The notes under the pieces are model-generated. The model was not told the DNA's origin. It searched no databases and was given only the letters and a program-made list of their open reading frames with translations. Below are positions 3,557 through 17,945 of a DNA stretch of 59,456 nucleotides, in pieces (the first letter of the stretch is position 1; every line of letters starts with the position of its first letter). A program made the position numbers and the translations under genes. The stretch is from Candidatus Iainarchaeum sp. (lineage in GTDB: Archaea > Iainarchaeota > Iainarchaeia > JAGGVJ01), in the NCBI GenBank assembly GCA_021158055.1, contig JAGGVJ010000026.1, positions 1 through 59,456 of the forward strand, given 5' to 3'.

Positions 3557-4252
3557 ATGAAGAAAGAAACTGGAAAGAAAAGCGATGCATACACGCTTTC
3601 AAAAACCGTAAACAGCAACAAGGTAACTGACATAACAGGTGAGTTCCGCACCATAAATGCTATGAGAAGCAACAAAGCAAAACTCATCATCAGGCTGCTG
3701 ATGAACGGGAAAATAATGATGGGTTACGGCGCCCCTAAGAATGTCTTAAACGGGGACCAAAACATCATCATCCTTAAGGACTCGGGAATAATCAGCGAGA
3801 ATACAAAGCGAAAGCTAAGGCTGTGGAGGAATCCTCAAAAAACAACGAAAGTTGTGACTGTCAGGACAAACGGCAAACCCATGGATCTTGACATCAGTAA
3901 ATTCCAAAAAACGATTCCAAATATTGGATCAATTGATGGAAATGATAGAAATGCACTCGTTTTGATTTCCAACCCAGGAAACGTGCTGATCCCCAACCCG
4001 GACAACAAGCAAGGAACCGACACCATGCACTCATTTTTGTTGCTTGGAGTAAAACAATCAAAGTCGTCTCCCGACGCCCTGCTGAACCTGCTTGGAAGAA
4101 TAGTGCTTGTAAGGGGACTGCAAACCAACTCACAACTACTTGACATGCTGCATCTTCACAAGAAGAGAATATGCTGGGTTGGAAAAGAAAAAAACGGGGC
4201 AACATGCATCATATACACCCACTTGTCATCGGAATTTAACGGACGTGAATAA
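3557..4252 (+). CDS. hypothetical protein, island family A (paralog of 6638-7378)
   Basis: 231-aa ORF with a GGAG RBS. Clear paralogy with 6638-7378. Compare NPDNKQGTDTMHSFLLLGVKQ...LLGRIVLVRGLQT...KKRICWVGKEKNGATCIIY with NPDNPRRTAGTNSFLLIEFGK...LIGRLVVVSDIST...KEKIVWIGKNKAGYIVAY. Confidence 0.6.
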   Translation: MKKETGKKSDAYTLSKTVNSNKVTDITGEFRTINAMRSNKAKLIIRLLMNGKIMMGYGAPKNVLNGDQNIIILKDSGIISENTKRKLRLWRNPQKTTKVVTVRTNGKPMDLDISKFQKTIPNIGSIDGNDRNALVLISNPGNVLIPNPDNKQGTDTMHSFLLLGVKQSKSSPDALLNLLGRIVLVRGLQTNSQLLDMLHLHKKRICWVGKEKNGATCIIYTHLSSEFNGRE

Positions 4253-4253
4253 C

Positions 4254-4808
4254 ATGGACAAAACAATACGGCACCAAATCAGGCCCAAGATAGAGAGAAT
4301 CATCAGGAACAACAGGAAAATACCATTTATGGCATTTTATGACTCGTTCTCAGGTGACCCTCTTGAGCCAATCGTGATAAACTCAAAGAAACTCTGGGAA
4401 CCACCCACAGTTTCGGACACAAAGGAAACGGAAAGGCAAATCGCCACAAAGATACAGAAATCAATAGACGATAACCTTAACGTGATCTCAGACGTGCTTG
4501 ATATCAAAATAAAGCAAACCTCAAAAGAGACCGGGGTATACTACTTGCTGTCAAGCGATTGGGATGAAACCATCATCTTGCTCATGGACAGTTCATTCGG
4601 CAGGATAGTAATTGCCGTGGCAGGAAAACAAGATGAACTTGCAGCCATAATAAACAAAGTAATCAAAGAGTTCTATTATGCGGAACAAGAGCGCAACGTA
4701 ATCCTGGTGGCAAACACAAGCGAACCGGACGTAATAAAGATGTTTCAGGACACAACAACACGAACCGTGCCCAACTTGATATTAAAGCTGGGTTTCAGCA
4801 AAGGCTAA
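4254..4808 (+). CDS. hypothetical protein
   Basis: The ATG at 4254 lies 1 nt after the stop of the preceding gene and gives MDKTIRHQIRPK.... The longer track ORF from 4140 overlaps the upstream gene, so it is unlikely. Confidence 0.55.
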   Translation: MDKTIRHQIRPKIERIIRNNRKIPFMAFYDSFSGDPLEPIVINSKKLWEPPTVSDTKETERQIATKIQKSIDDNLNVISDVLDIKIKQTSKETGVYYLLSSDWDETIILLMDSSFGRIVIAVAGKQDELAAIINKVIKEFYYAEQERNVILVANTSEPDVIKMFQDTTTRTVPNLILKLGFSKG

Positions 4809-4844
4809 CTTAACTTGGCCTTTATCGGAACGGAACAATCCACG

Positions 4845-4939
4845 GCAGTTGGACTGCATGCCAGGCAAGCATAAACACTATTTTTCGGGTTCAAATCCCA
4901 CAACTGCCATCGCTTTGCCAAAGACGATCAGGGTAAAGC
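4845..4939 (+). repeat. tRNA-like leader element copy E1 (candidate structured RNA)
   Basis: 5' arm GCAGTTG 4845-4851. Inner hairpin TGCATGC/GCAAGCA 4855-4871. CTATTTTT box. T-arm-like GGGTTCAAATCCC 4887-4899. 3' arm CAACTGC 4901-4907, a perfect reverse complement of the 5' arm. Hairpin GCTTTGCC/GGTAAAGC 4912-4939. Confidence 0.6.
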
Positions 4940-5067
4940 AAAAACGCAACCAAAGGAGACAACATAACAAACAACAAAACAGAATTCACCCGGCAGAACA
5001 CACAGACAACAGAACGTCAAACCCCGTCGCATTTCAGAAATGAGAACGGGAACATTGAGGCAAAGTC

Positions 5068-5199
5068 ATGGAAAAATCAAACAAACCTAAAAAGTTTCAA
5101 CAAAAGACAGAACAGGCGTTTTTAAACGTGTTTAACAACGCAAGCCGACCACAAGCAGAGCCATATAATGAAAAAACAGACGAAATCCGCCGTTTATAA
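5068..5199 (+). CDS. possible small protein (43 aa)
   Basis: ATG preceded by a TGAGG RBS-like motif. Sequence MEKSNKPKKFQQKTEQAFLNVFNNASRPQAEPYNEKTDEIRRL. Below the 60-aa cutoff of the ORF track. First ORF after element E1. Confidence 0.3.
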   Translation: MEKSNKPKKFQQKTEQAFLNVFNNASRPQAEPYNEKTDEIRRL

Positions 5200-5213
5200 C
5201 GTCTTTCGCGCTG

Positions 5214-5498
5214 TTGGCATTCAGTGCACTGTTTTGCATAATGGGAGCCATTATCTCCGAACCGATCATCATCGGCATGGGGCTGACAGCCACCCTGATA
5301 TTGTGTTTTCTTCTCAGGAACAAAACATCCATGGAAAGAACACTCAATAAAGGTAAATACATAATGTATGCACTCCTGCTGATGTGGGCAATATGCGGGG
5401 CATTAATGATCCTCAACTCCATTAACAACCCCCACAATGGTAACCGGAAACGCCAAACACCGGAAACGCTGAACACAGGGTATTTTGCTTCCCTTTGA
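5214..5498 (+). CDS. small membrane protein
   Basis: 94-aa ORF with a TTG start in the track and two or three hydrophobic helices. Its stop lies inside the conserved 3' hairpin element T1. Confidence 0.4.
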   Translation: MAFSALFCIMGAIISEPIIIGMGLTATLILCFLLRNKTSMERTLNKGKYIMYALLLMWAICGALMILNSINNPHNGNRKRQTPETLNTGYFASL

Positions 5499-5526
5499 TT
5501 TTTTCCGGAAGCACCCTTGCTTTTTT
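5487..5526 (+). terminator. conserved cassette 3' hairpin + T-run element, copy T1
   Basis: Stem GCTTCC 5487-5492 / GGAAGC 5507-5512 with loop CTTTGATTTTTTCC, followed by CACCC and a T-run. The same architecture occurs at 6448-6488 and 18446-18488. Confidence 0.55.
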
Positions 5527-5617
5527 ACCGGATGACAAGTACAGCACAAAGACACCTGACAAGCACAGCATAACGACACAATAAAGAAAACCGACATAAC
5601 AAAAGGAGAACAAACAA

Positions 5618-6073
5618 ATGAACACAATCAACTCCGGCGGACTGAACCAGCCACACTTTGAACAGTACATTCCATCTGTTGCAAGAATTTTACCTGGAAT
5701 CGTTGCCACAGAACTAACTGTCAGAAAAGCACCGTGGAACGAACCTGATGCAGTCATATCAAAAATTCTCTCTGATATGATTCTGGAAGCATCAGTGAAA
5801 CCCATAGCGCGAAAAATTGACCGCCTTGCAGGTTTCAATATCCCCCTACCCACACTGGTCCAAAAACCAGCACATTGGATTACGAAAATCAAGGGGATAA
5901 CATTTAAGACAAAAACCAGTGCCGACAAGAATTTTCCATTCTGCAGCATTGGCGTTCCAGGTAAAATACTGTCCAAAATTGGTGTGTCGGATACAAACGA
6001 CAGAATTGTACTGTTTTCAGCAGACAGAACAGCACCTGAAAATGAAAACAAATGGGAATTGCTCCTTATTTAA
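5618..6073 (+). CDS. hypothetical protein
   Basis: 151-aa ORF with an AAGGAG RBS 8 nt upstream, co-directional with the island. The competing antisense ORF 5422-6051 was rejected. Confidence 0.5.
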   Translation: MNTINSGGLNQPHFEQYIPSVARILPGIVATELTVRKAPWNEPDAVISKILSDMILEASVKPIARKIDRLAGFNIPLPTLVQKPAHWITKIKGITFKTKTSADKNFPFCSIGVPGKILSKIGVSDTNDRIVLFSADRTAPENENKWELLLI

Positions 6074-6200
6074 TTTCCTTAAACATTGCATCGGTAAAGG
6101 TGGGTTAGTGGCTTTTCTGACCTTTCAGCAGGATCATTCGTACCGCTTCCACTGCCGAAAATGCAAATTAAGGAAAAACTTTTTCCCAACAGTTAAAACC

Positions 6201-6297
6201 GCAGCCGGCCAACATGCGCCTATTTTTCGGGTTCGAATCCCGCAACTGCAATCACTTTGCAACCGGCAAAGCAAACCAAAAACAGCAACTTGCTGTT
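6201..6297 (+). repeat. tRNA-like leader element copy E2 (shortened inner hairpin)
   Basis: 5' arm GCAGCCG 6201-6207. TATTTTT box. GGGTTCGAATCCC 6229-6241. 3' arm CAACTGC 6243-6249 (5 of 7 pairs). Hairpin CTTTGC/GCAAAG 6255-6271. Hairpin AACAGCA/TGCTGTT 6281-6297. AGGAGG RBS follows. Confidence 0.55.
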
Positions 6298-6317
6298 AAA
6301 AAACAACAGGAGGAAAA

Positions 6318-6419
6318 ATGTTCAAAAAAGACATGAAACGAACTATTTTCAGCTTACTGCTGGAAGTAATAACCGCCATATTAGTCTTTGTAAAGACTAA
6401 AATAAAGAACCTCAAGTAA
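6318..6419 (+). CDS. possible 33-aa hydrophobic peptide
   Basis: AGGAGG RBS 6 nt upstream of the ATG. Sequence MFKKDMKRTIFSLLLEVITAILVFVKTKIKNLK has a basic N-terminus and C-terminus and one TM-like helix. It sits exactly between E2 and T2. Confidence 0.35.
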   Translation: MFKKDMKRTIFSLLLEVITAILVFVKTKIKNLK

Positions 6420-6447
6420 CACCGCCCTGCCTCTAGTGCAAACTTTG

Positions 6448-6488
6448 TTTCCCTTTGATTTTTTCCGGAAACACCCCCTTTTTTTTTC
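6448..6488 (+). terminator. conserved cassette 3' hairpin + T-run element, copy T2
   Basis: Stem GTTTCC 6448-6453 / GGAAAC 6468-6473, a compensatory C>T / G>A change relative to T1. Identical loop CTTTGATTTTTTCC, then CACCCCC and T9. Confidence 0.55.
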
Positions 6489-6519
6489 TGCTCTGCACAG
6501 GCAAAACATTTCTAAAACC

Positions 6520-6645
6520 GCAGCCGACCAACACACGCCAGGCATGTGCCACTATTTTTCGGGTTCGAATCCCACAGCTGCAATCGCTTTGCTAACACAA
6601 GCACAGCAACCGGCAAAGCAAACCAAAACAGCAAACCATGCTGTT
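6520..6645 (+). repeat. tRNA-like leader element copy E3
   Basis: 5' arm GCAGCCG 6520-6526. Inner hairpin CACACGC/GCATGTG. CTATTTTT box. GGGTTCGAATCCC 6561-6573. 3' arm CAGCTGC 6575-6581 (6 of 7 pairs, with a C-G pair where E1 has T-A). Hairpin GCTTTGC 6586-6592 / GCAAAGC 6613-6619. Hairpin AACAGCA 6627-6633 / TGCTGTT 6639-6645. Confidence 0.6.
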
Positions 6646-7378
6646 AAAAACCCAGAGGAGTAAAGAATTGAATGACATAACAACAGTTTCCCAATTGCAG
6701 ACTGCAATGGAAACAAATAAAGACATAACACCGCAAATGACTGACAGAACACCAGCGATGGAAGCATTCTGGAACCTGTTAAACAAAGGGCAGATTCTTC
6801 CGTGTGGAGCTCCGACAGAAGAAAAGGGCAACGATCGGTTTGTACTGGTCTTAAGGAATCCCCGGAAACTAACCGAACGAGACTCCAAAAAAACCAAGTC
6901 AAAAATGACTGGAATTTGGAGAGAGCACAACGATCCAAAAAGCACGATAAACGTGCAGATTGCAGGGGAAACCCCGGTTAAACTGCGAATCGGAAAAGAA
7001 CCAGGAATAGTTCCCAACCTAAAAATGGATAAATGGGAAACCAGCCATGAGAACTTGCTTCTCTTATGCAAAAACCCAGACAATCCAAGAAGAACAGCCG
7101 GAACAAATTCTTTTTTGCTAATCGAATTTGGCAAAACAAGAACAAAAAACCTGAAACACCACCACAAAAACTCAACTCTCGCAATGTTAATAGGGAGACT
7201 TGTAGTGGTTTCAGACATTTCAACCCTGCGTGGCGTCAAGGAACTGGCTGACCAGTTCAAAGAAAAGATAGTCTGGATTGGGAAAAACAAGGCTGGTTAC
7301 ATAGTTGCTTACCTGAACATCAGAACCGTAGCGGAACCGATTAAAGCAACAACAAAATCAAAGGAAGACAATGGCTAA
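6638..7378 (+). CDS. hypothetical protein, island family A (paralog of 3557-4252)
   Basis: Paralogy with 3557-4252 supports this frame over the antisense ORF 6592-7290. The start is uncertain: ATG 6638 lies inside the E3 hairpin, and the in-frame TTG 6668 follows a GAGGAG RBS. Confidence 0.6.
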   Translation: MLLKTQRSKELNDITTVSQLQTAMETNKDITPQMTDRTPAMEAFWNLLNKGQILPCGAPTEEKGNDRFVLVLRNPRKLTERDSKKTKSKMTGIWREHNDPKSTINVQIAGETPVKLRIGKEPGIVPNLKMDKWETSHENLLLLCKNPDNPRRTAGTNSFLLIEFGKTRTKNLKHHHKNSTLAMLIGRLVVVSDISTLRGVKELADQFKEKIVWIGKNKAGYIVAYLNIRTVAEPIKATTKSKEDNG

Positions 7379-7493
7379 CAGAAAGAAAAAAAACCAAAAA
7401 GGCGAGGACAAGCCAAAAAAGGGTGAAAACAAGAGGAAGAGAGAACAAACCACCAAACAGAAATTGCAAAAGCTAAAGGAGAAAAAGGCCTAA
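7371..7493 (+). CDS. possible 40-aa highly basic peptide
   Basis: The ATG overlaps the stop of the previous gene. Sequence MANRKKKNQKGEDKPKKGENKRKREQTTKQKLQKLKEKKA. It could equally be a chance ORF in A-rich sequence. Confidence 0.25.
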   Translation: MANRKKKNQKGEDKPKKGENKRKREQTTKQKLQKLKEKKA

Positions 7494-7520
7494 GACAATT
7501 TCAAGCAGTTAAAAAGAAAA

Positions 7521-7572
7521 GCAGTTGCAGATTCTGCCAAACTGCTGCTCTTTTTTTCTTTTTTTTATTTTT
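7521..7572 (+). terminator. hairpin + long T-run terminator
   Basis: GCAGTTGCAG-att-CTGCCAAACTGC hairpin (7521-7545) followed by a run of more than 20 nt of mostly T. Confidence 0.55.
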
Positions 7573-7602
7573 ACTAACCAAAACGAACACAATATAGTTC
7601 TG

Positions 7603-7711
7603 TAGTCGACCCACATGCACCGGGCGTGTACCTCTTTTTTCGGGTTCGAATCCCGCAGCTGCAATCGCTCTGCAACCGGCAAAGCAAAACAAAACAGCAG
7701 GAACTCGCTGT
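7603..7711 (+). repeat. tRNA-like leader element copy E4
   Basis: 5' arm GTAGTCG 7603-7609. Inner hairpin ACATGC/GCGTGT. GGGTTCGAATCCC 7642-7654. 3' arm CAGCTGC 7656-7662 (4 Watson-Crick pairs, 2 G-T wobbles, 1 mismatch). Hairpin GCTCTGC 7667-7673 / GCAAAGC 7679-7685. Hairpin ACAGC/GCTGT 7694-7711. GGAGG RBS follows. A TTTATTTTTAC TATA-like box lies ~30 nt upstream of the 5' arm. Confidence 0.6.
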
Positions 7712-7727
7712 AAATCTGGAGGAAACC

Positions 7728-8222
7728 ATGTTTAAAAAAACACACATAAATGCAGACTGGCTGCTAAATGCCAAACAAATAGAAAAGGCTGCAAACGGAC
7801 TTAGGAATTTTGAACCCCTAAGCAATACCACGTCTCCGCAACTACCTAACTTGGTTGAAACAGAAGAAGTCATTGCACAGGCAATGTTCTTTTTCAGAAA
7901 ACAATTTCTCCCATCAATGGTTAAACAACCTAAGAAACTGGAAAAGCATTTTCAGAGGTCGTATAATTTCGCAGATGACTGTGAAAGAATATTATTCCTG
8001 AAAAAAATTGCTCTTAGTACAAACACCCATGGACAAAGTGGGATATTACCCGTTGAAGCTGTTTACCTCTTGGGAAAAGAAAACCCGGTGGAAAGCTTAG
8101 ATCCTCTCTTGGAAATAATGAACAACAGCAACAACCCCCAGGTAAGAAACGCATCAGCTGCAATCATCACCAAAGTCCTGGAATTCCAAAACAGCAGGAT
8201 ACCTGCAGAAACTACAAAGTAA
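7728..8222 (+). CDS. hypothetical protein, possibly HEAT-repeat-like
   Basis: The ATG at 7728 follows a GGAGG RBS; the track ORF from 7626 would run through E4. The C-terminal LDPLLEIMNNSNNPQVRNASAAIITKVL resembles a HEAT/PBS-lyase repeat. Confidence 0.5.
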   Translation: MFKKTHINADWLLNAKQIEKAANGLRNFEPLSNTTSPQLPNLVETEEVIAQAMFFFRKQFLPSMVKQPKKLEKHFQRSYNFADDCERILFLKKIALSTNTHGQSGILPVEAVYLLGKENPVESLDPLLEIMNNSNNPQVRNASAAIITKVLEFQNSRIPAETTK

Positions 8223-8374
8223 AGACAAAAAGAAAGCTGCTCAGAACAAATGAAAAGCCGCTTAACAGACAAATCCAAACAAAAATTGGCTTCTTTTTTA
8301 ACGCCACTACTTTTTTCATCGCTCTCACAACGGCAAAACATGCCAAAATCGCTGAGAGACAACAAGTTTTCCAA

Positions 8375-8469
8375 GCAGTTGAACCGCACGCAACAAAGCA
8401 TGCAACACTATTTTTCGGGTTCAAATCCCGCAACTGCCATCGCTCTGCCAAAAAAGCAACCGGCAAAGC
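8375..8469 (+). repeat. tRNA-like leader element copy E5
   Basis: 5' arm GCAGTTG 8375-8381. Inner hairpin GCACGC/GCATGC. CTATTTTT box. GGGTTCAAATCCC 8417-8429. 3' arm CAACTGC 8431-8437 (perfect 7 bp). Hairpin GCTCTGCC 8442-8449 / GGCAAAGC 8462-8469. Confidence 0.6.
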
Positions 8470-8500
8470 AACAAGATACAATACAATAGGATAAAACCAA

Positions 8501-9478
8501 ATGAACAAACAATCAGCAGAACTAAACGAACTTCTGAAAAAGTTCTTCCCTAACATCAACGGGATTCTTGAAGGACTTGAACGAGAAAACTGGTCACAGG
8601 AAAGTGCCTTAAGCGCAGTATCAAGCATGCTTTCAAATGGACCTGTTCAGGAACTATTCCAGTTCAAAAGCAGAGTATTCCCCATGTACGTGGAAAACAT
8701 GGACCCGGAATGGTTCGGAATGCTAACCGCCGTTATTGTAGCGGAAGACATAGAAACGTTCTATATCCTGGGAGCTTTGATGGAGTTTCTCAAAAAAATC
8801 GATAGTGGTGCTCTTTCCACTAAAGATGAATTGATGCACGAGTTTTTCGCCATCACAAAAGAACTCACAAAAAATCGGGAAATGAGCAGGTTTGAGGAAA
8901 TCAGCGTTGTTGTCTGCTGCTCAACAGAAGAAGAGTTAGAAGCAGTAACAACTCAGCTTCGGGCCAACAAACTCTGGCAGAACGCCATAAACTACTTTGA
9001 TAAAGAAATTTATCCAAAAGTAAAAGCAATTCTGAACCTTGAAAAACCGGTTTTCGGAAGAACTTCCGCTGAATTTTTGGTGACCAACAATCAGGATGAT
9101 TTCCTGGCTAAATGCAAGGACAAGCCAGTTGTCATAATGCCAAAGCTAAGAAACGAAAACCAGCCTGACTACGAGCAGCTGATAGAAAAACTGCTTGAAA
9201 ACGGGTGCAAAATAACTGCGCCAACATGGTTAGTAACTTCCCCGAATAACACTCTTCTGGAAAGAAGAATAAAGGCAGTTAAAGAGCTCTCAAAGCAAAG
9301 AGACTGGAAAACCGAACTTGTCCTGCACACCGGAGGAATGGGCTTTTTCCCGGATACGAATCTGGAGGAGATTCAATCCACCTTAAGAATCAACGTGGAA
9401 CGGCAGGGCGTTCTTGAAATGGCCCAGGACATCGCAGACATAACCGGCGGAATAATCATAGTCACAGAAACGACGTAA
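8501..9478 (+). CDS. hypothetical protein
   Basis: 325-aa ORF downstream of E5, followed by a strong hairpin/T8 terminator. No motif recognised. Confidence 0.6.
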   Translation: MNKQSAELNELLKKFFPNINGILEGLERENWSQESALSAVSSMLSNGPVQELFQFKSRVFPMYVENMDPEWFGMLTAVIVAEDIETFYILGALMEFLKKIDSGALSTKDELMHEFFAITKELTKNREMSRFEEISVVVCCSTEEELEAVTTQLRANKLWQNAINYFDKEIYPKVKAILNLEKPVFGRTSAEFLVTNNQDDFLAKCKDKPVVIMPKLRNENQPDYEQLIEKLLENGCKITAPTWLVTSPNNTLLERRIKAVKELSKQRDWKTELVLHTGGMGFFPDTNLEEIQSTLRINVERQGVLEMAQDIADITGGIIIVTETT

Positions 9479-9526
9479 GCCTCAAAAACTAAATTTGATG
9501 GCTATCCGCAGGGAACAGTAAACTAA

Positions 9527-9560
9527 GTGTGGCTTACTCCCTTGCCACACACTTTTTTTT
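9527..9560 (+). terminator. hairpin + T8 terminator
   Basis: GTGTGGC 9527-9533 / GCCACAC 9544-9550, followed by ACTTTTTTTT. Confidence 0.6.
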
Positions 9561-9623
9561 AAATTAAAAAATGAAAAATAAGTTGCTCAACTCTTACTTT
9601 AAAAAGCAAATCACAAGAGGTGA

Positions 9624-10658
9624 ATGAAAATGAAAACCTACTACTGCACACTCAAGATATACTTCATGAGAGACAAACCAGAAATAACTGATGAAGAAAT
9701 CGAAACCGTGAAAAGAATTTACTTAAAGGAGCTGGAAAAGAAAAAACCCGAGCTGCCAAACCAGGGGGCTCAAGTCACAATCGAAGCCACCACCTGCCAA
9801 CAGGCGCTCAACACAGCAGCCAACACGTACGAATTCTTAATACCTAAACCAAAATACAACACAACCAACGCAATTTGGGCCCACATAAGAAACTTAAACG
9901 AAAAAAACAAAAGCGTTCTGTTTTGGGGGCACATTGTTATCCTAAACAAGAAAAAAGAAGGTTTGAGCACTAGCCATCTTGCCTTGCCGCATGAAGAAGA
10001 CGAAGAACATTACCTCACTAAATTGGTGAACAAACTCACCAAGTCATTTCTGGATTTGTTTATTGGCCGTACTCCCAGCTCACCGCACAGCGAACACCAT
10101 CTTCTGATAGAAAGTATGCCCAACAAAGCAAAAACAACCTCACGGATAGAATATGTTGTAAATGAGATAACTAAAAAAATGCCTCCTTTGTTAAAGGAAA
10201 CGAACAAGGAAGCAAAAACAACAAAACAAGAAACAAGAGGAGAAAAAAAAGCAATGAACCCTTCTCTAAAATACAGCCTTGAGGTTGATTTTACCTCAAA
10301 AAACGGAAGCTCCCGCATAAGGTTGTTTGTCCCTGTAACAAACGGCAACAAAACCTACGCTATCCTGCCGGACATACAGACAAAAGCAGACAAAGTGTTG
10401 CTGCTCTACCAGGACTTCTCTTCAGGGGAATCAAAGGCAGGGGTGCTTTCAGACGTGCTTGTAACGTCGACATCAACCCAGTTGATCATTGACGGGAAAG
10501 AACCGGTAAATGAAGAAAATCCTTTTGGGAGCTGTTCTTCAATTGTAACAGTAAGCTCAACCAGAGAAGAAAACATAATACGTTCGTTGGGAAACGACCC
10601 ATCAGATTACGAAAAAGACCTTTCAAAGGTCTTGAAAAAGGCGCTTGCTCACCGTTAG
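9624..10658 (+). CDS. hypothetical protein (first gene of the CDC48-like operon)
   Basis: 344-aa ORF with a GAGGTG RBS; the start is ATG 9624 or 9630. No motif recognised. Confidence 0.55.
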   Translation: MKMKTYYCTLKIYFMRDKPEITDEEIETVKRIYLKELEKKKPELPNQGAQVTIEATTCQQALNTAANTYEFLIPKPKYNTTNAIWAHIRNLNEKNKSVLFWGHIVILNKKKEGLSTSHLALPHEEDEEHYLTKLVNKLTKSFLDLFIGRTPSSPHSEHHLLIESMPNKAKTTSRIEYVVNEITKKMPPLLKETNKEAKTTKQETRGEKKAMNPSLKYSLEVDFTSKNGSSRIRLFVPVTNGNKTYAILPDIQTKADKVLLLYQDFSSGESKAGVLSDVLVTSTSTQLIIDGKEPVNEENPFGSCSSIVTVSSTREENIIRSLGNDPSDYEKDLSKVLKKALAHR

Positions 10659-10699
10659 TTCGCGGGATGCCTTTGACAATAAAAAGATAGGAGGAAACC

Positions 10700-11080
10700 A
10701 TGACATCACTAATCATGAAGGTACCTTCCAAAGACGGTGCCAAAGAACTGCTGGTATTCTGCGGAGAACAAGAAACAACTGACGTGTCGATTGAACTCCA
10801 GCAAGGAATACTGTACAAACTCAAAAACGGAGTACTGCTGATTCTCCAGTACCTGCCTATAAACACTTCTGACATCATTGTTGCAAAAGCCGCGGAAATA
10901 CACTTGTTCCATGGAGAAAGCATCAAGGCAGAACTGGTTGGAAACGCTCCGCTTACCCGAGTATACGCAATCGGGAAAGAACCACTGATAAGGGAACTGA
11001 AAAGAATCAAACAGCACACAAGATTCCGCTGGGACGAACAGCGTGCAAGTATGGATCCCGTAAGCAGAATAGAAGTTTAG
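10700..11080 (+). CDS. hypothetical protein
   Basis: 126-aa ORF with a strong AGGAGG RBS, 9 nt before the CDC48-like gene. Confidence 0.55.
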   Translation: MTSLIMKVPSKDGAKELLVFCGEQETTDVSIELQQGILYKLKNGVLLILQYLPINTSDIIVAKAAEIHLFHGESIKAELVGNAPLTRVYAIGKEPLIRELKRIKQHTRFRWDEQRASMDPVSRIEV

Positions 11081-11089
11081 GAGGAAGAA

Positions 11090-13252
11090 ATGACTGCAAA
11101 TATCAACGTAAAACTGATGAGAGACGACGAAATCCAAAACGGTGCGTGCCGAATAAGCAAGGCACTGTCAACCGAACTGAGAATAAGTCAGGGTCAGGTA
11201 ATCGAGATAGCCGGAATCAACAGCAAAAGACGTGCTATAGTTGTCATCTCCGAAGTTTCGGAAGCACCCGGTGATGCAGAAACAAAGCAACTCATCTGGG
11301 CAAACAACGAAACAATTCTCAATTCCAATGTGGATTTTGAGGGACGAGCACAGGTGAGCGCGATTCAAAAAGTCCGCGAGGCAAAAGAAATAACCGTGGC
11401 ACCGTTGAACACTTCCATAATACCATCCCTGCTGGATCAAAACAAGTTCAAAAACAGCGTAACAGGGCGCTTCTTCGCAAAGGGGAACATAATATCAAGC
11501 ATGGGAAGCTTCAGCGTTGAGGGCTCAGGCACTGATGGGCATGACAACTTCATCGAATACAAGGTAAAAATAGTGTCAACAAAGCCGGATTCATCGGTTC
11601 AGGTCACTAAAAAAACCAACATAATATTCAAGGAACCCATACGCGGAGAAATTGACTTTGGAGACATCGGAGGATTGAATAGCCAGATAGAAACAATGCA
11701 GGAACTGGTGGAATGGCCGCTTCGCTACCCTGAAATATTCGAGCATTTAGGGCAGGATTCCCCAAAAGGCGTTCTTCTGCACGGTCCGCCCGGAACCGGA
11801 AAAACCCATCTGGTAAGAGCAATAGCAAGATCTGCAGATGCTCACTTCATATACGTGAACCCCGGGGAAATCAGCGCTGATCCCACTCAGGCAAAAACCC
11901 GCATTGACGAGTTGTTCAACGAAGCAAACAATCACCCTGGCCCGGCAATAATCTTTTTGGACGAAATTGACGCAGTTGCGCCAAAGAGAAGCGAGTTAAG
12001 AAACCCAATCTATTCCAGCATAGTGTCGCATCTGCTCACAAAAATAGACGGCATGGAAACCAATTCGCAAATCATGGTGATTGGCGCTACAAACAGCCCA
12101 AACAGCATTGATGAAGCCATGCGCAGGCCTGGGCGACTTGACATTGAAATAGAGATCCCATCCCCGGACAAGGAAGGGAGAATGGAAATCCTCGAAATTC
12201 ATACACGGGGAATGCCGTTTGAGACCTCAAAGCAAAGAATTGACATTCTGGAGCCCATAAGCGAGGCAACTCACGGGTTTGTCGGAGCAGACCTGATGTT
12301 TCTCTGCAAATCTGCAGCACTTGCGTGCATAAGACGGAACTGGCTGGACATCGAACTAGACGAAAACGAACACATCCCGCCAAAGGTTCTGCGGACACTG
12401 CGGGTGAATCTGGGTGATTTCAAAGAAGCTTTGAAAACAACAACACCCTCTGTTGGCCGGGATATCATCGTGGAGAAACCAGATGTCGACCTGAAAAAAG
12501 ACATCGGTGGACTGAACGAAGCCAAAAAAGAGCTTTTGGAGACCGTTGTCAGGGCATGGGCAAACAAAGAGGAAATCGCAAGGCTAAACCCCTCAACCAA
12601 AATCCCAAGGGGAATCGTATTGCACGGACCCCCGGGAACCGGAAAAACATTCCTTGCAAAAGGACTGGCAAAAGAAATGGGTTTTCATTTGATTGTGGTA
12701 AAACCAAGCGACGTCCTGTCAAAATGGCACGGCGAATCCGAAGGTACAATAAGCAAGGTGTTCAGCAAGGCAAAATCACTTGCACCCTGCATCATTGTAT
12801 TCGAAGAGTTTGAATCACTGGTGCCTGTCCGCGGACAAGCGTCGGATTCTGCCGGGGCTGCAAACAACAGATTAGTGAACCAGATACTCACTGAAATGGA
12901 TGGTTTTGACAGCCTTACAGACGTCATTGCCATAGCGACAACAAATCGCATTGACATGATTGACCCTGCAGTACTGCGAAGCGGCAGATTTTCTGTAACG
13001 ATACCTGTATCAGATCCTGACGAAGGCGAAAGAGAAGACATCTTCAGAAAGATCTTCAAGAGCGCCACAATCAAAGACGACATTGATTTCAATGAACTTG
13101 CAATGGCAAGCGATGGCCTGAATGGCTCTGACATAAAGGAAGTCCTTGACAGGGCAGTGTACAAAACCATTACCCTCAAAGGAAAGCACATAAAAAAAGA
13201 AAGTGTGCTGGCAGCGATAGAAGACATAAAGGAAACAAAGAAGGAAAACTAA
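11090..13252 (+). CDS. divergent CDC48/VCP/p97-like double-ring AAA+ ATPase
   Basis: N-terminal CDC48-N-like domain. D1: [10 protein letters not shown] Walker [10 protein letters not shown] Walker B, RRPGRLD arginine fingers. D2: [10 protein letters not shown] Walker [10 protein letters not shown] (Walker B with D>E), SKWHGESE aromatic pore loop, LRSGRF. The D1 pore loop lacks the aromatic/GESE motif. The C-terminus (..ETKKEN) has no HbYX motif. Confidence 0.9.
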
Positions 13253-13323
13253 GGAACATCAGTTGTTTCTCTTTCCTTTTTTATGTCAAAAAATTAAAAA
13301 AACAAAATTTGGAGGCATAAGCA

Positions 13324-14007
13324 ATGAGATCAACATACACAATAAATTTCTTCAGAAACTCTGAAGAGATTAAACTAAATGAACTGGAGAGGATAGCCAA
13401 AGAGCTTTCAAATACGACAACATTCAATTGCAAAATTGAAATACACAAAAGCCCGCTTGAAAAAGCAAGGGGTTCAGAACTGAATAGCTCATTCTTTGAG
13501 GAAGGCTGCAATCTTGACGATTCTTTTGTCTTTGCGGCATTTGTTGAAGAGAACATGCCCGGTGTTAACACTGACCATATACTGATTGGACAAAGTTCAA
13601 GGGGATGCCTGGTCAGGGTAAAAGAAAACAGTGATGCAACAATGCATAACTTACTTCACCAACTCGGGCACGTGTTTGGAATTGAGGACCACTGCACAAA
13701 AACAAAGTGCGTAATGTACCCCCTCTACATAAAAGGCGCGGTGGACTTCAAAAACCCTTTCTGCAGCGACGGGAATAGCAGTTGTGGAAGCATAATTGAA
13801 GAAGCAGTGTTTCACAAACAGGACCCTGACCACTGGGATAACATTGCCACAGGCAGTTGCGAAAACACAACTTCAGCTCACGAACTGGCCGGAAAACCGC
13901 AAATCAAGCACAGCACTCGGAGAGACACAGACTTCCTGAAGAAAATAAAAACACACGTTGAAAGGCCAACTGAAAGAAGCCTCATACAACTACTGGAGGA
14001 AACATAA
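13324..14007 (+). CDS. archaemetzincin-like (M54-like) zinc-protein with HQxxH instead of HExxH
   Basis: MHNLLHQLGHVFGIEDHCTKTKCVMYP...FCSDGNSSC fits the archaemetzincin signature HExxHxxGxxHC-x4-C-x-M...C, with two differences. The catalytic Glu is replaced by Gln, and there is a one-residue insertion before HC. Confidence 0.6.
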   Translation: MRSTYTINFFRNSEEIKLNELERIAKELSNTTTFNCKIEIHKSPLEKARGSELNSSFFEEGCNLDDSFVFAAFVEENMPGVNTDHILIGQSSRGCLVRVKENSDATMHNLLHQLGHVFGIEDHCTKTKCVMYPLYIKGAVDFKNPFCSDGNSSCGSIIEEAVFHKQDPDHWDNIATGSCENTTSAHELAGKPQIKHSTRRDTDFLKKIKTHVERPTERSLIQLLEET

Positions 14008-14999
14008 TGTTCTTATCCACCCACGCATACCCCGGACATGACTACATACTCCTCAGCATGACAGAGAGTCTTGTGCTTATGATTGCTGTGATAATCTTTA
14101 ATGCGGTTGTAGCAAGCCTTGTTGTATCACTGAAAAACAAGTACCTTGAAAACAACTACAGGATAAGTGACCTGTCAGAAGACAAAATTGCGGTTTTATT
14201 CCTTGTACTTGTAAACACAACAATCATGCTTCTGTTCATCAAAGACGGAACACACAACATCATGCACTTCTGGCCAGGTGACTTTATGAATGCTGTCCTG
14301 TTAACTGCCATTGCTGCATTGGGAGCACTGGTAACAGCAAACATATTCCTTGGAACATACAGGTTCACGGAAGCACCCCCGGAAGGCCAACAATCAGTGA
14401 AGGCAACCTTCAATTCAGATGACGGGCGACTTCAGATAAACCCACAAAAACCCAAAGAATGGTCAATGGGTTTGTGCGATGCGCCGATAGTAACCAAAGA
14501 AGCGCTGAGATCCGCAGCCAGAATAGCAATTGTCGGAGCGATTGTCTTTCTGTTGATGCTCGTGCTATCCAGTTTTAAGGTGTCAATAAGCCGGACAGAA
14601 TTATCATGCATATTTGGCATGTACCTGGCAGTAGACATTATTCTGGCAATGAGGCTTCAGGCCATACTTGGCAGAAGAAATATGGACGAGCGCTCATTCC
14701 TTGCAAAGCCCGAAAACATGTTTTATTACAACCAACAAAAACACTTAAAGCAAAGAGCATCCGGGAAGCAAACCTTTGCAACAACTGACAAAGATAAACT
14801 GATATTGCTGATTATGCTATTAATAGGTGGAGGAATTACATCCTTAATCCTATTGATAATAATAATCGGAACGATAACAAGCAGCATCGGTTACTCCATA
14901 GCTAACATGAGCGAAAACGACAACTACATGCCACACTTCCTTATTAGTTTGGTGGTCTTCTACCTGTTGTTTTTTTACGGAGAAGATGTCCTTTCCTAA
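14007..14999 (+). CDS. polytopic membrane protein (about 7 TM), unknown function
   Basis: 330-aa ORF whose start overlaps the previous stop (TAATG). Multiple long hydrophobic segments. Confidence 0.6.
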   Translation: MFLSTHAYPGHDYILLSMTESLVLMIAVIIFNAVVASLVVSLKNKYLENNYRISDLSEDKIAVLFLVLVNTTIMLLFIKDGTHNIMHFWPGDFMNAVLLTAIAALGALVTANIFLGTYRFTEAPPEGQQSVKATFNSDDGRLQINPQKPKEWSMGLCDAPIVTKEALRSAARIAIVGAIVFLLMLVLSSFKVSISRTELSCIFGMYLAVDIILAMRLQAILGRRNMDERSFLAKPENMFYYNQQKHLKQRASGKQTFATTDKDKLILLIMLLIGGGITSLILLIIIIGTITSSIGYSIANMSENDNYMPHFLISLVVFYLLFFYGEDVLS

Positions 15000-15051
15000 C
15001 GAGACAAGAAACCAAGAACACACAAAAACAAAGAGAATAGGAGGAATCAAG

Positions 15052-15852
15052 ATGAGTGAACAAGTATACACCTACAACAATCCCTGCGGAGGAATCCCTG
15101 CAGAAAAAATGCTTTTAGCATGCACTGCAATTGCTGAAACCTTTGCAAACGGAACAGAAAGCTTTGAGACAGCCATCAACGAAAACAGGAAAAAGCTTTC
15201 ATGCATCGCAGGAATATCTGTTGAACGGACAGCAGTGCTTAAAGGACTTGTAAAGAACTCGATAAAAGCGCCAGAAAAGGGTGTGAAAAAGGCAGGCAAC
15301 ATCCAAAAGGCGATAATCGAACTGAACCCGAACAAACCCATAAACGCAAAGGCAGGAAAGGGTTCAAGAACAGGAAAAGTTTTCAAACCGCCCGTTACAG
15401 TGGTGGCTGAAATGGAAAAAGACAATCCTGAAAGTGCCAAAGTGCAGATAATAATGCCTTTTTCTGCTGAAGACGATTCGGAATGCGACCAACTGGCAAA
15501 GGACATAATAAAAGACCTTTATGTCATGGCCACTGGAAAGCACATTACTGACAGTCAGATACAATTCATGGAACCAGCCCCCCTCAACCAAAGTGTGTGC
15601 GTGGAATGCGGAGAAAAAACACTCCATATCCACTACTGTCCGCTTTGTGGAAACCGATACTGCTCAAAACACAGGAGCCCGGTAAACCACAGGTGCTGCA
15701 ATTTGTCTGCAGTAACAAAAGAGCACAAAACAGCAAATCCAAAAGGGACAATCACCAAGGCAGAGGGAACAACCGGCATGGAACACGAATCCACAGCAGG
15801 ACACGAGCCCACAGCAATAACTGTAGAACGCAGAACGCAAATGTGCGGGTGA
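15052..15852 (+). CDS. AN1-type zinc-finger protein
   Basis: The ATG at 15052 follows an AGGAGG RBS. The C-terminal CVECGEKTLHIHYCPLCGNRYCSKHRSPVNHRC matches the AN1 pattern C-x2-C-x9-C-x2-C-x4-C-x2-H-x5-H-x-C exactly. Confidence 0.8.
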   Translation: MSEQVYTYNNPCGGIPAEKMLLACTAIAETFANGTESFETAINENRKKLSCIAGISVERTAVLKGLVKNSIKAPEKGVKKAGNIQKAIIELNPNKPINAKAGKGSRTGKVFKPPVTVVAEMEKDNPESAKVQIIMPFSAEDDSECDQLAKDIIKDLYVMATGKHITDSQIQFMEPAPLNQSVCVECGEKTLHIHYCPLCGNRYCSKHRSPVNHRCCNLSAVTKEHKTANPKGTITKAEGTTGMEHESTAGHEPTAITVERRTQMCG

Positions 15853-15893
15853 ACACCCCCTTGAAAAAGGATACCCACCTAATCTGAGGGGTT

Positions 15894-15915
15894 GGCTTTA
15901 TTTTTCACGCTGCCC
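15894..15915 (+). promoter_or_regulatory. 22-nt promoter-like box GGCTTTATTTTTCACGCTGCCC, copy 1
   Basis: Identical 22-mer also at 16591-16612. Contains a TATA-like TTTATTTTT. Lies 94 nt upstream of element E6. Degenerate relatives lie upstream of E5 (8287-8304, GGCTTCTTTTTTAACGCC) and E4 (7564-7574). Confidence 0.4.
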
Positions 15916-16008
15916 CACGGTTTTTTTATTACCCATGTAACGGCAAAGAAGGCAGAATAATACACATCCCCCTTCACCGTATTGCACAAGCAAAACCCAA
16001 TTGCATCA

Positions 16009-16123
16009 GCAGTTGAACCGCACGCAACCGGCGCATGCCCCTATTTTAGGGTTCAAATCCCGCAACTGCCATCGCTTTGCAAACCGGCAAAGCAAACAAC
16101 GCAAACAGCAAAAATTCGCTGTT
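16009..16123 (+). repeat. tRNA-like leader element copy E6
   Basis: 5' arm GCAGTTG 16009-16015. Inner hairpin GCACGC/GCATGC. CTATTTTA box. GGGTTCAAATCCC 16049-16061. 3' arm CAACTGC 16063-16069 (perfect). Hairpin GCTTTGC 16074-16080 / GCAAAGC 16087-16093. Hairpin AACAGC 16104-16109 / GCTGTT 16118-16123. Confidence 0.6.
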
Positions 16124-16146
16124 AAACAAAGTTTAGAAGTGTAAAA

Positions 16147-16515
16147 ATGGACCGAGAAACCAACACAGTGCACATAAGAACAGCAGTCATAGAAGAAGAG
16201 ATCAGCACAGATAAAAGACTGATGCTGCATCAGGACACTGAATTCAAGGAAAACATTGCCTGCGCAGGCATAATGTGTGAAGATAGCCTTTGGCATATCA
16301 ACGCAAAGAACATCGACACAAACGGCGGCGACATCGAGGCATGGAATATTGATGTAAAAGGAAACATCAACACGTGGAACATCCTTGCAGAGGGAAACAT
16401 CAACGCAGGAGACATCAATGCGGACACCCTCAAAGCAAAGAACATCCTTGCAAGCGACATGAAAGTAAAAGGACCTATTGTCAAGATATACCAAATAAAC
16501 AAAAGGACAAATTAA
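16147..16515 (+). CDS. repeat protein, possibly beta-helical (bactofilin-like)
   Basis: 122-aa ORF with short periodic repeats NIDTNGGDIEAWNIDVKGNINTWNILAEGNINAGDINADTLKAKNI. These are reminiscent of bactofilin/DUF583 beta-helix turns. The function call is weak. Confidence 0.45.
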   Translation: MDRETNTVHIRTAVIEEEISTDKRLMLHQDTEFKENIACAGIMCEDSLWHINAKNIDTNGGDIEAWNIDVKGNINTWNILAEGNINAGDINADTLKAKNILASDMKVKGPIVKIYQINKRTN

Positions 16516-16590
16516 CGCAAAAAGGAAGATCAACGCAACAAAGATCAAAGAGTGCAAATGAGTACTCCTTGATTAGTAAATGGAAGGGCC

Positions 16591-16612
16591 GGCTTTATTT
16601 TTCACGCTGCCC
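16591..16612 (+). promoter_or_regulatory. 22-nt promoter-like box GGCTTTATTTTTCACGCTGCCC, copy 2
   Basis: Exact copy of 15894-15915, placed 29 nt upstream of the wHTH gene start. This spacing is appropriate for an archaeal TATA box with a short leader. Confidence 0.45.
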
Positions 16613-16640
16613 ACTCTCCTTTTACACAGAGGAAAAGATA

Positions 16641-16886
16641 ATGAACAATAAAGACATGGAACAAATCCTGAAACTCATCAAAAAACCCAGGTATAATGGG
16701 TGCATAACACGTACGACAGTTATACACATAACTAAACTGTCTGCTCAAAGGATTGATGATGCTGCGCACTGCTTGGAAAAACTTGACATAATCAACATCA
16801 TTTATGGCAAGCATCACGGAATGAGAACAAGCACCCACTACCAATTGATCAGTTGGGAGGAAGAGATACAGAGATATTTTCATTAA
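16641..16886 (+). CDS. small winged-helix DNA-binding protein (putative island regulator)
   Basis: The ATG at 16641 follows GAGGAAAAG. The 81-aa sequence MNNKDMEQILKLIKKPRYNGCITRTTVIHITKLSAQRIDDAAHCLEKLDIINIIYG... has an HTH-plus-wing-like pattern. The track ORF from 16374 overlaps the previous gene. Confidence 0.5.
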   Translation: MNNKDMEQILKLIKKPRYNGCITRTTVIHITKLSAQRIDDAAHCLEKLDIINIIYGKHHGMRTSTHYQLISWEEEIQRYFH

Positions 16887-16916
16887 CAACCGAAAAAGAC
16901 AAAGCCACTCGCATCA

Positions 16917-17006
16917 GCAGTTGAACCGCACGCAACGGAGCATGCACCTATTTTAGGGTTCGAATCCCGCAACTGCAATCGCTTTGCCAACAGCAACCGG
17001 CAAAGC
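16917..17006 (+). repeat. tRNA-like leader element copy E7
   Basis: 5' arm GCAGTTG 16917-16923. Inner hairpin GCACGC/GCATGC. CTATTTTA box. GGGTTCGAATCCC 16956-16968. 3' arm CAACTGC 16970-16976 (perfect). Hairpin GCTTTGCC 16981-16988 / GGCAAAGC 16999-17006. It starts only 30 nt after the wHTH stop, so it is intercistronic. Confidence 0.6.
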
Positions 17007-17030
17007 AATAAAGACATCGGAGACAACATA

Positions 17031-17945
17031 ATGTCGGAAAAACGACCACCTATGAAAGCAGAATATTGCTTCAGAAGCGATATCAAACCCACCAGCACTC
17101 CACAAACGAACATAAGTCAGTACAAGCATGGAGATCAGACACTGGCAATCAACCGTGCCAGAGAAAAAGTGCAGTTAGACACGCAAAGTGTCCTGCACAT
17201 TGAAAAAATCAATGACACTTTTGTGACATGGTATGTTACACTGGGTGAACATGTTATTACAACAATGGCACCCTGGATCAGCAACACCCAAGCACAAAAA
17301 ACATTGGTCAACGGATATCTCAACGCCCAAGCATATGACATAAACGGTTGCGGGTATTTTGTATACCTCAACAAAGAGAATAACACCCTTGTTGAAACCA
17401 AATACGTGTTCAGGTTTCTCAAAAGACAAAAGAATGACACAGTCACCATAAAAGTGACAAAATTCTCAAAGCCCCACAAGGAGACAATACCAAACAGCAT
17501 TATGAAAACAAGCGAAACCATAAATGTGGTCCTGCCAAAAGCAAGGGACGAGAACCCGAATCATTTCCCGGAAAGCATACCCCTGTTTTCAAACGGCAGA
17601 CATACGATCTACCTGGCCTATAACGGCTACAACGGCCCGCATCACAAAACGTACGAATTCGGCTTGTATGTAAAGAGCACCAACGGAAGATGGGCAGCTT
17701 TCCAGGTCTTCCAAGCGTCACTCAAGAAGGATAATCCAGAGTGGAAACACTTACACACAAAACTGGAGGGGCACATAAGACTGCGGAAAGACATCCCGCA
17801 ATCGGTTAAACTCATTGCCAACAGTGCTTTGCCAGCCACCGACCGCAATACTCAGCCACTGGAACTCAATTTCCAGCTCAACAGTGCTGATGAAAGGATC
17901 GCCGCAATGACAATCTGGAATGCCAAACCAGAAAATTGCACCTGA
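17031..17945 (+). CDS. hypothetical protein, island family B
   Basis: 304-aa ORF with a GGAG RBS. It shares motifs with the next ORF: QSVLHIEKINDTFVTWYVTL vs QCILHIDKIDNDVSLLEWHVKL, and YVFRFLKRQKNDTVTIKV vs YLIKFLKDKRNRVYTKWV. Confidence 0.6.
   Translation: MSEKRPPMKAEYCFRSDIKPTSTPQTNISQYKHGDQTLAINRAREKVQLDTQSVLHIEKINDTFVTWYVTLGEHVITTMAPWISNTQAQKTLVNGYLNAQAYDINGCGYFVYLNKENNTLVETKYVFRFLKRQKNDTVTIKVTKFSKPHKETIPNSIMKTSETINVVLPKARDENPNHFPESIPLFSNGRHTIYLAYNGYNGPHHKTYEFGLYVKSTNGRWAAFQVFQASLKKDNPEWKHLHTKLEGHIRLRKDIPQSVKLIANSALPATDRNTQPLELNFQLNSADERIAAMTIWNAKPENCT

Follow-up and report, generated by a model that had tools for sequence, protein, structure and literature searches.

A tRNA or tRNA-like fold within a long transcript acts as the cleavage signal that sets the ends of neighbouring RNAs in MALAT1 and MEN-beta, with their mascRNA-type 3′ ends, and in mitochondrial tRNA punctuation; these cases come from the eukaryotic nucleus or from organelles, and mascRNA has retained its four arms. 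In plant mitochondria, t-elements are non-canonical tRNA-like folds in which a T-arm motif (GGTTCRANYCC) is joined to an acceptor-like helix; they lie directly upstream of the 5′ ends, or downstream of the 3′ ends, of mRNAs and guide RNase Z and RNase P to cut at these ends, and the excised piece can be stable and gain non-encoded C/A residues (Hanic-Joyce et al. 1990; Forner et al. 2007, PMC1920247). In archaea, the t-element upstream of 5S rRNA in Haloferax volcanii is a mini-tRNA that tRNase Z cuts on its 3′ side, and the RNA downstream thereby gains its 5′ end (Hölzle et al. 2008, 2012), and Haloferax t-elements, used as a tool, release flanked RNAs in vivo (PMC4326828, PMC4946936). Here we describe a family of 15 tRNA-like elements without an anticodon arm, each followed by a leader hairpin, that precede protein genes of Candidatus Iainarchaeum sp., a Candidatus Diapherotrites (DPANN) archaeon; seven of them lie in positions 1–59,456 of contig JAGGVJ010000026.1 (hereafter the window). 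We tentatively read these elements as t-elements that may be excised by RNase P and tRNase Z, a reading to which we give somewhat less than an even chance.

The locus differs from each of these precedents. The plant mitochondrial t-elements are scattered, unrelated single copies in an organelle, whereas here we read, from sequence alone, a paralogous 15-copy family with a fixed layout in a block of an archaeal chromosome. The Haloferax t-element is a single natural case that sits in an rRNA operon and not before protein genes, and it has no sequence relationship to the present elements, which gave no hit in Rfam or elsewhere. An earlier annotation made by a model from the letters of the window (the sequence-only reading) had known of no described archaeal element with this layout; this holds for a multi-copy family before protein genes, but t-elements as such are known in Haloferax volcanii (PMC4326828) and plant mitochondria (PMC1920247). 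The TMERs (tRNA–miRNA-encoded RNAs) of murine gammaherpesvirus 68 (MHV68) are similar in that they form eight clustered units, each with one or two hairpins behind a tRNA-like element, in which tRNase Z splits the tRNA-like part from the hairpins, such that a foreign genetic element uses the tRNA enzymes of its host (PMC4838037). Unlike the present elements, the TMERs are eukaryotic RNA polymerase III transcripts with hairpins that are pre-miRNAs and not mRNA leaders, and their viral tRNAs have a full cloverleaf. What is new is the conserved 15-member family with a fixed layout that lacks the anticodon arm, with an attached leader hairpin, before the protein genes of one DPANN block; cutting of mRNAs by tRNA enzymes gene by gene, the likeliest role of the elements, is not known as a described system in archaea, and our search of the literature on tRNA-like elements in DPANN turned up nothing.

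The seven copies in the window (E1–E7; Table 1) lie where the sequence-only reading had placed them, except that E4 starts at 7602 (GTAGTCG) and not at 7603. Its count of seven fell short of the family, which has eight further same-strand copies in the 9.6 kb upstream of the window, six of them clear (U1–U6) and two decayed, in L015 (like L137, an upstream stretch of the same scaffold), for a total of 15 copies in ∼27 kb. All 15 are on the coding strand and inside a 34-kb same-strand block of orphan genes. The order of parts reported earlier, with a 5′ arm, an inner hairpin, a T-rich linker, a T-arm, one nucleotide, a 3′ arm, N plus ATC and the hairpin GCTTTGC...GCAAAGC (hairpin 2), is found in every copy, but in E2 most of the inner hairpin is gone and only 5/7 positions of the arms pair. 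We call the part from the first base of the 5′ arm (G1) to the N, which corresponds to the discriminator of a tRNA, the mini-tRNA; its length is 46–65 nt, and hairpin 2 begins 3 nt past the discriminator in most copies. The third hairpin (AACAGC/GCTGTT) is indeed present in four copies (E2, E3, E4 and E6), as judged by reading of the sequence. Of the T-stem, described as 3–4 bp, three base pairs are certain, but at the fourth position just 9 of 14 copies have a standard pair.

The elements occupy a constant site before a ribosome-binding site (RBS) and a start codon. In copies with an identifiable downstream gene, the end of hairpin 2 is 25–129 nt from the start codon, mostly with a recognisable RBS; the earlier figure of 16–130 nt, measured from an element end that includes hairpin 3, is consistent with our own measurements. 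Intercistronic placement was also borne out, with E7 beginning 30 nt and E1 36 nt past the upstream stop codon.

The T-arm motif GGGTTCRAATCCC is far commoner than chance would give. It occurs on the plus strand of the window at 4887, 6229, 6561, 7642, 8417, 16049 and 16956, and its eighth match, at 37745 on the minus strand, lies within a genuine intron-containing tRNA; these 8 matches compare with 0.14 expected from shuffles, and 0/100 shuffles reach 8. A covariance model built from 13 copies recovers all 15 copies with scores of 24–99 bits and finds no copy in host DNA, whether the 37 kb inside the window or the part to the left of the block, nor in the single distantly related mobile element within reach. 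The edges of conservation are sharp, with onset exactly at G1 and an end at the final base of hairpin 2: mean pairwise identity is 0.30 in the 30 nt upstream of G1, then 0.76 in the 5′ arm, 0.85 in both the T-arm and the 3′ arm and 0.82 in the last 12 nt of hairpin 2, and falls to 0.35 in the 30 nt downstream. Paralogous downstream proteins are only ∼25% identical, while their elements are ∼75% identical in our own comparison of E7 with U4; the much greater similarity of the elements points to a strong constraint upon them.

Table 1. Positions of the elements and of other features in the window (bits, covariance model scores; z, fold z-score)
Feature	Position	Strand	Remarks
E1 mini-tRNA, G1 to discriminator	4845..4908	+	5′ arm 4845-4851, T-arm 4887-4899, 3′ arm 4901-4907; minimum free energy fold is a 3-way junction; 80.7 bits
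E1 leader hairpin 2 (GCTTTGCC...GGTAAAGC)	4912..4939	+	begins 3 nt (ATC) past discriminator
E2 mini-tRNA, partly decayed	6201..6250	+	inner hairpin deleted; arms pair 5/7; 72.8 bits
E2 leader hairpin 2 (ACTTTGC-AACCG-GCAAAGC)	6254..6272	+	
E2 hairpin 3 (AACAGC-loop-GCTGTT)	6281..6297	+	directly ahead of RBS and ATG at 6318
E3 mini-tRNA	6520..6582	+	arms GCAGCCG/CAGCTGC; 89.7 bits
E3 leader hairpin 2	6586..6619	+	
E3 hairpin 3	6627..6645	+	precedes RBS and start codon at 6668
E4 mini-tRNA	7602..7663	+	arms GTAGTCG/CAGCTGC, 2 G.U and 1 C.A; 85.6 bits
E4 leader hairpin 2	7667..7685	+	
E4 hairpin 3	7694..7711	+	precedes RBS and ATG at 7728
E5 mini-tRNA	8375..8438	+	z = -2.7; 94.7 bits
E5 leader hairpin 2	8442..8469	+	precedes RBS and ATG at 8501
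E6 mini-tRNA	16009..16070	+	96.4 bits
E6 leader hairpin 2	16074..16093	+	
E6 hairpin 3	16104..16123	+	precedes ATG at 16147
E7 mini-tRNA	16917..16977	+	z = -2.7; 99.5 bits
E7 leader hairpin 2	16981..17006	+	precedes RBS and ATG at 17031
Terminator-like hairpin, T-rich loop (TGGC-TTCTTTTTTAAC-GCCA)	8287..8306	+	after upstream gene, 69 nt before E5
Relatives of the hairpin at 8287-8306	5487-5512, 6447-6472, 15894-15915, 16591-16612; L015 2222, 3008, 3617		
Window part of 34-kb same-strand orphan-gene block	1..22153	+	block starts ∼12 kb upstream of window (L137 ∼7300)

Selection on a fold is supported by several lines of evidence. The minimum free energy fold common to 10/13 copies is an acceptor-like helix that closes a 3-way junction made with the inner hairpin and the T hairpin, followed by hairpin 2. 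Fold z-scores are mostly between -2 and -3.7, with a mean of approximately -2.1 on the plus strand versus -1.3 on the minus strand. The compensatory changes pointed out earlier are present, with arm position 5 being T-A in most window copies versus C-G in E3 and the outer pair of the inner hairpin being G-C versus A-T in E3 and E4, and the diverged upstream copies, which were unavailable to the sequence-only reading, add covariation that upholds its case for selection on a fold. The arms, GCAGTTG/CAACTGC in most copies, become GCAACTG/CAGTTGC in U3 and U6 (two doubly compensated pairs), the T-stem CGGG/CCCG becomes CAGG/CCTG in U2 and CCGG/CCGG in the copy at L015:3053, and the outer pair of hairpin 2 changes from G-C to A-U in U5 and to G.U in U4. 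The inner hairpin keeps its ACCGG loop over a changed stem, GCAC/GUGC in U4 versus AUGC/GCGU in E4. In an alignment fitted to the model, 92% of pair cells are paired, compared to 27–45% when the partners are slid, and 5/18 pairs have changed on both sides; two of these belong to the 7-bp acceptor-like helix, in which 94% of cells are paired. The covariation score is 0.172 versus 0.112 in shuffles, and 0/500 shuffles reach 0.172. RNAalifold, supplied with no structure, recovered the acceptor helix, the T-stem and hairpin 2.

The fold evidence would serve equally for a structured 5′ leader that owes nothing to tRNA enzymes, such as a platform for an RNA-binding protein of the block or of the host, or an element for stability or translation, in which the T-loop is present simply as a general tertiary motif. 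The loops of both hairpins share ACCGG or AACCG(G), suggesting a common ligand or a CCGG.CCGG loop–loop contact, and the block encodes an extra KH-domain S3-like protein. However, no candidate binding protein was identified, and a 7-bp helix that G1-C72 closes, a T arm set against its 3′ strand, a discriminator and a trailer other than CCA are together specifically the features of an RNase P and tRNase Z substrate; we consider a leader of this type quite unlikely.

The likeness to tRNA extends to details of sequence. In the 13 clear copies, G53-C61, T55 and A58 are invariant, and variation in the T-loop is confined, as in real tRNAs, to R57, N59 and N60, with one exception, a C56-to-T change in U6. 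Accordingly, 12/13 of these copies match the GGTTCRANYCC motif by which t-elements are recognised, while U6 has TTTGAAT. The other hallmark of t-elements, a closing acceptor-like helix with its 3′ strand set directly against the T-stem and an unpaired discriminator behind it, is found as well. The inner hairpin begins 2–5 nt past the 5′ arm, which is the site of the D-arm, and has GG in or beside its loop in 11/13 copies; from this position and loop we read it as a D-arm analogue, which could form the tRNA ‘elbow’ with the T-loop. The proposal that the element mimics the top half of a tRNA is thus right about the acceptor helix and T-arm, but its ‘variable hairpin’ takes the D-arm position, so that only the anticodon arm is absent, replaced by a U-rich linker of 8–12 nt. 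The 3′ trailer of the mini-tRNAs is never CCA, and CCA is an anti-determinant for tRNase Z.

In line with the sequence-only reading, the elements are not decoding tRNAs. ARAGORN in standard mode called none of them, and Rfam gave no match at the gathering score and no relevant match at E ≤ 10 over 4700–8600 (E1–E5). In its relaxed and mitochondrial modes, ARAGORN called 2/13 copies, with inconsistent ‘anticodons’ and amid noise; the loops of the inner hairpins are 3–7 nt and without a conserved U33. We also rejected a bulge–helix–bulge intron, for which the flanks beyond the arms are neither conserved nor complementary, and a split or permuted tRNA, with both acceptor strands present in normal order. 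Elsewhere in the window, at 34758–34824 on the minus strand, there is a sub-threshold match to RF00005 (19.4 bits) in which the D arm, the anticodon arm (GAG), a long variable arm and a perfect T arm are recognisable but no 5′ acceptor strand matches the 3′ strand, CTCCCGC; a tRNA-Leu with a non-canonical intron is one possibility, and a split gene that escaped ARAGORN and the Rfam gathering threshold is another.

If the elements are t-elements, each would be the transcribed leader, or the intercistronic spacer, of the gene that follows, and its RNA would fold into the 7-bp acceptor-like helix, the D-arm-like hairpin, the U-rich linker, the T arm with its canonical T-loop and the discriminator. 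The tRNA-processing enzymes of the host, which encodes the RNase P protein subunit Rpp29 at 49608–50012, would take the mini-tRNA for a pre-tRNA. RNase P would cut 5′ of G1 and release the upstream RNA, and tRNase Z would cut after the discriminator to leave an mRNA that begins with AUC and hairpin 2. As a 5′-terminal structure, hairpin 2 would shield the 5′-monophosphate mRNA against 5′-end-dependent decay, and the elements would thereby punctuate and stabilise the transcripts of the block. The near-constant gap of 3 nt from the predicted cut to hairpin 2 fits a protective 5′-terminal stem–loop; in bacteria, hairpins 2–4 nt from the 5′ end stabilise mRNAs. No T-run follows hairpin 2, which implies that the element is not a separate gene but part of the transcript of the downstream gene. 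Among the three hypotheses put forward in the sequence-only reading, punctuation by RNase P and tRNase Z is the best supported, and we tentatively infer from the features above that the elements are transcribed, cleaved by both enzymes and followed by a protective hairpin. The wider proposal is that a foreign or lineage-specific 34-kb block gave nearly every transcription unit its own mini-tRNA, at which host RNase P and tRNase Z punctuate the transcripts to yield hairpin-capped mRNAs; this would be a mitochondrion-style ‘tRNA punctuation’ of protein genes in a prokaryote, by means of paralogous mimics without an anticodon arm, and we regard it as possible but hold it with some reserve.

A number of observations weigh against excision by tRNA enzymes. 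With a T-stem of 3–4 bp, the acceptor/T stack is 10–11 bp compared to the canonical 12, and 47 predicted tRNA-like elements of Haloferax reportedly remained uncleaved in vitro. The covariation statistics are weak because all copies are paralogues of one genome, and the alignment behind the pair counts was, as stated, fitted to the model. The G.U cells (9) and the C.A cells (∼9 in our own tally from the alignment) are about equally frequent, a tie in the assignment of strand, such that pairing alone does not mark the plus strand as the folded one. Transcription raises further difficulties. Runs of T6–T9, several in the loops of terminator-like hairpins, are found 4–60 nt upstream of at least seven elements, which means that the leader must arise by read-through or from an unrecognised promoter. 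No canonical TATA box occurs within 100 nt upstream of any copy, and the canonical boxes TTTAAATA/TTTATATA are found on the plus strand only at gene starts that have no element (9624, 18882 and L137:9508). Finally, T5–T6 is present inside the linker of five window copies; such a run is an archaeal termination signal and unusual within a tRNA.

The same observations bear on a composite promoter, the second hypothesis of the sequence-only reading, in which the linker CTATTTTT serves as TATA box for an mRNA that starts at the conserved A of ATC and opens with hairpin 2, and the tRNA-like part is an untranscribed spacer and operator. The elements often stand behind terminator-like T-runs with no canonical TATA box upstream, while element-less gene starts have their own boxes; moreover, the 8-mer before the T-stem in the E copies is A/T at 6–7 of 8 positions, lies a constant 22–23 nt ahead of ATC, the usual archaeal distance from TATA box to start, and CTATTTTT in E1–E7 is more conserved than a single-stranded linker would require. 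But this constant distance can be a by-product of tRNA geometry, and the box is not TATA-like in U2, U3 (GCTTAACA), U4 (AACTCCTC) or U5 (CAACTTTC). In a check for B recognition elements and TATA boxes, the T-rich 8-mer was seen 22–23 nt before ATC in the E copies and U6 but not in U2–U5, and the tRNA promoters of this organism are themselves heterogeneous. The spacing from arm to arm, from ∼32 to 51 bp as calculated from the lengths of the mini-tRNAs, is wrong for a dimeric operator, and a spacer gives no reason for a tRNA-type T-loop or for compensatory changes in the arms, T-stem and hairpins. The hypothesis therefore retains its box at 22–23 nt in the E copies but is weakened by the lack of conservation upstream and by covariation it does not account for, and we judge it unlikely. 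The transcript could arise by read-through or be started by a promoter, either one upstream that escaped recognition or one within the element; no conserved promoter was found upstream of G1.

The terminator-like hairpins belong to a second repeat family, sited after genes, with short G+C stems and a T-rich loop (e.g. GGC-TTCTTTTTTTAC-GCC, GCTTCC-CTTTGATTTTTTCC-GGAAGC); these hairpins look like dedicated terminators. T-runs also occur at 7551–7566, 30 nt before E4. The stretch 7497–7577, just upstream of E4, holds a hairpin (AGCAGTTGCAGATTCTGCCAAACTGCTGCT), followed by T7/T8 runs, that reuses the arm words GCAGTTG and AACTGC, which may reflect coincidence or shared ancestry. A strong canonical promoter module, GAATCTTTTTTGC(R)AA(K)GTTTATATA, has two copies, one in the window at ∼18845–18875 and one in L015 at ∼930–960.

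The third hypothesis of the sequence-only reading was that the elements are recombination sites of a cassette system. We take such boundaries, which would resemble attC, together with two related ideas, that the elements are left over from serial integration into a tRNA gene or are miniature inverted-repeat transposable elements (MITEs). The locus invites such a comparison: it is an array of small co-oriented orphan genes, the repeat between them has inverted-repeat arms and a variable centre, the classic att core of archaea consists of a T-arm with the acceptor's 3′ strand, E1 is a break point in three assemblies, and the block encodes a VirB4/TraG/HerA-like ATPase. Like integron attC sites, the elements are repeats between co-oriented cassettes with imperfect inverted-repeat ends and a variable centre. 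Unlike them, they come with no IntI, form only a 7-bp helix leading into a 3-way junction, have a conserved T-loop and show the opposite arm polarity. The attC consensus reads R″ RYYYAAC ... R′ GTTRRRY, whereas the arms GCAGTTG ... CAACTGC have GTT first and AAC last. The block proteins scanned, and the Pfam hits recorded for the other called genes, include neither an integrase nor a recombinase; border repeats of at least 12 nt are absent, and the order of genes is identical in the five contigs recovered. The 5′ acceptor strand and hairpin 2, which is not tRNA sequence, are conserved as well, and the four tRNA genes called by ARAGORN or Rfam in the 79 kb within reach (not counting the sub-threshold match at 34758, whose 3′ strand differs too) all have other acceptor stems. 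As for a MITE or the end of an insertion sequence, all 15 copies have one orientation, their flanks are unrelated and lack target-site duplications, the conserved block reaches 25–45 nt past the 3′ arm, and the phage and plasmid collections searched gave no match. We found no support for recombination sites in any of these forms, and consider them very unlikely.

The conjugation-type ATPase also raises the idea that the elements are structures in the single-stranded DNA of a transferred mobile element, comparable to the single-stranded promoters or priming sites that conjugative plasmids have in their leading regions. All genes of the block are co-oriented, the only relative of the ATPase sits in a relaxase-bearing element, and the pairing pattern separates neither RNA from DNA nor one strand from the other. 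Yet helices of 3–7 bp are too short to rebuild a double-stranded promoter, the conservation of the T-loop is left unexplained, and no relaxase or origin of transfer (oriT) was found here; we know of no established single-stranded DNA conjugation of such kind in archaea. This idea seems to us most improbable.

Should the elements be cleaved, several consequences follow for archaeal mRNA end formation and protection, which are poorly understood and about which almost nothing is known in DPANN. The tRNA-processing enzymes would be general mRNA-maturation enzymes in a prokaryote, and a block of genes could impose its own post-transcriptional ‘grammar’ through the housekeeping enzymes of its host. 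The elements would also offer a minimal natural substrate (acceptor, D-like and T arms in 46–65 nt) for the study of recognition by archaeal RNase P and tRNase Z, and an RNA-release tool, as the Haloferax t-element already is. If they are promoters instead, they would be a curiosity, promoters built on a tRNA scaffold.

We looked for relatives of the elements in other genomes and found no described relative in Rfam, GTDB genomes, IMG/VR, JGI metagenomes, phages, plasmids or the literature searched. The exact pattern of T-arm, 3′ arm and ATC had 0 matches in GTDB representative genomes and 0 in IMG/VR, and blastn against phage and plasmid collections gave no match to the elements. The nine metagenome matches of the exact pattern (L001–L009) were set aside as an unrelated tRNA-derived repeat; they are nine short contigs (VAPA/VAPB/VAPC) with a highly similar repeat ending in GGGTTCGAATCCCACAGCTGCCATC, which looks like a SINE-type (short interspersed nuclear element) repeat from a eukaryote present in the metagenome. 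A looser pattern (T-arm ... ACCGGCAAAG) matched more than 115 genome loci and 2 viral loci, all of them scoring at most 24.8 bits with the covariance model, and these were discarded as ordinary tRNAs with a chance 10-mer. The five contigs of the same species are 99.9–100% identical with identical gene order and differ solely in an N gap at E1, and give no signal for comparison. This gap, at 4742–5105 of the window, is an N run in the ENA scaffold that spans E1, and 5106 is where two further assemblies of this organism stop; the assembly break is due either to the repeat or to population heterogeneity.

The archaeal nature of the window is evident from its genes, which include those of an archaeal mevalonate pathway, enolase, SecY, S4e and Rpp29, and its tRNAs carry introns of 16–19 nt. 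Host genes from 22266 onwards are on the minus strand, and the 34-kb block splits a minus-strand mevalonate cluster, with HMG-CoA reductase on one side (L137 4929–6203) and IDI2, IPK, AcnX, a UbiD-like decarboxylase and mevalonate kinase on the other (window 22266–28949). No tRNA was found to flank the block, and GCAGTTAAATAG occurs twice at its left border (L137 7405 and 7461). Its genes are nearly all orphans; the recognisable products are an AAA ATPase with nearest homologues ∼40% identical, the VirB4/TraG/HerA-like ATPase, a zinc-protease-like protein, an AN1 zinc-finger protein and a second S3-like KH protein. The only relative of the 872-aa ATPase of the block is distant and belongs to an unrelated conjugative element that has no such tRNA-like elements. 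The second S3-like protein (220 aa, KH_2 and S3_C; 1080–1742, plus strand) is additional to the canonical S3 of 362 aa (50851–51939, minus strand), which lies in a ribosomal protein operon beside L29 and Rpp29; it is unusual for a block that may be foreign to carry a further RNA-binding S3 paralogue. In L015, upstream of the window, a stretch of ∼1 kb (∼800–1780) has no convincing open reading frames and opens with a run of short TGTTTAYT-type repeats in AT-rich sequence; the block may have its origin, or an iteron region, here.

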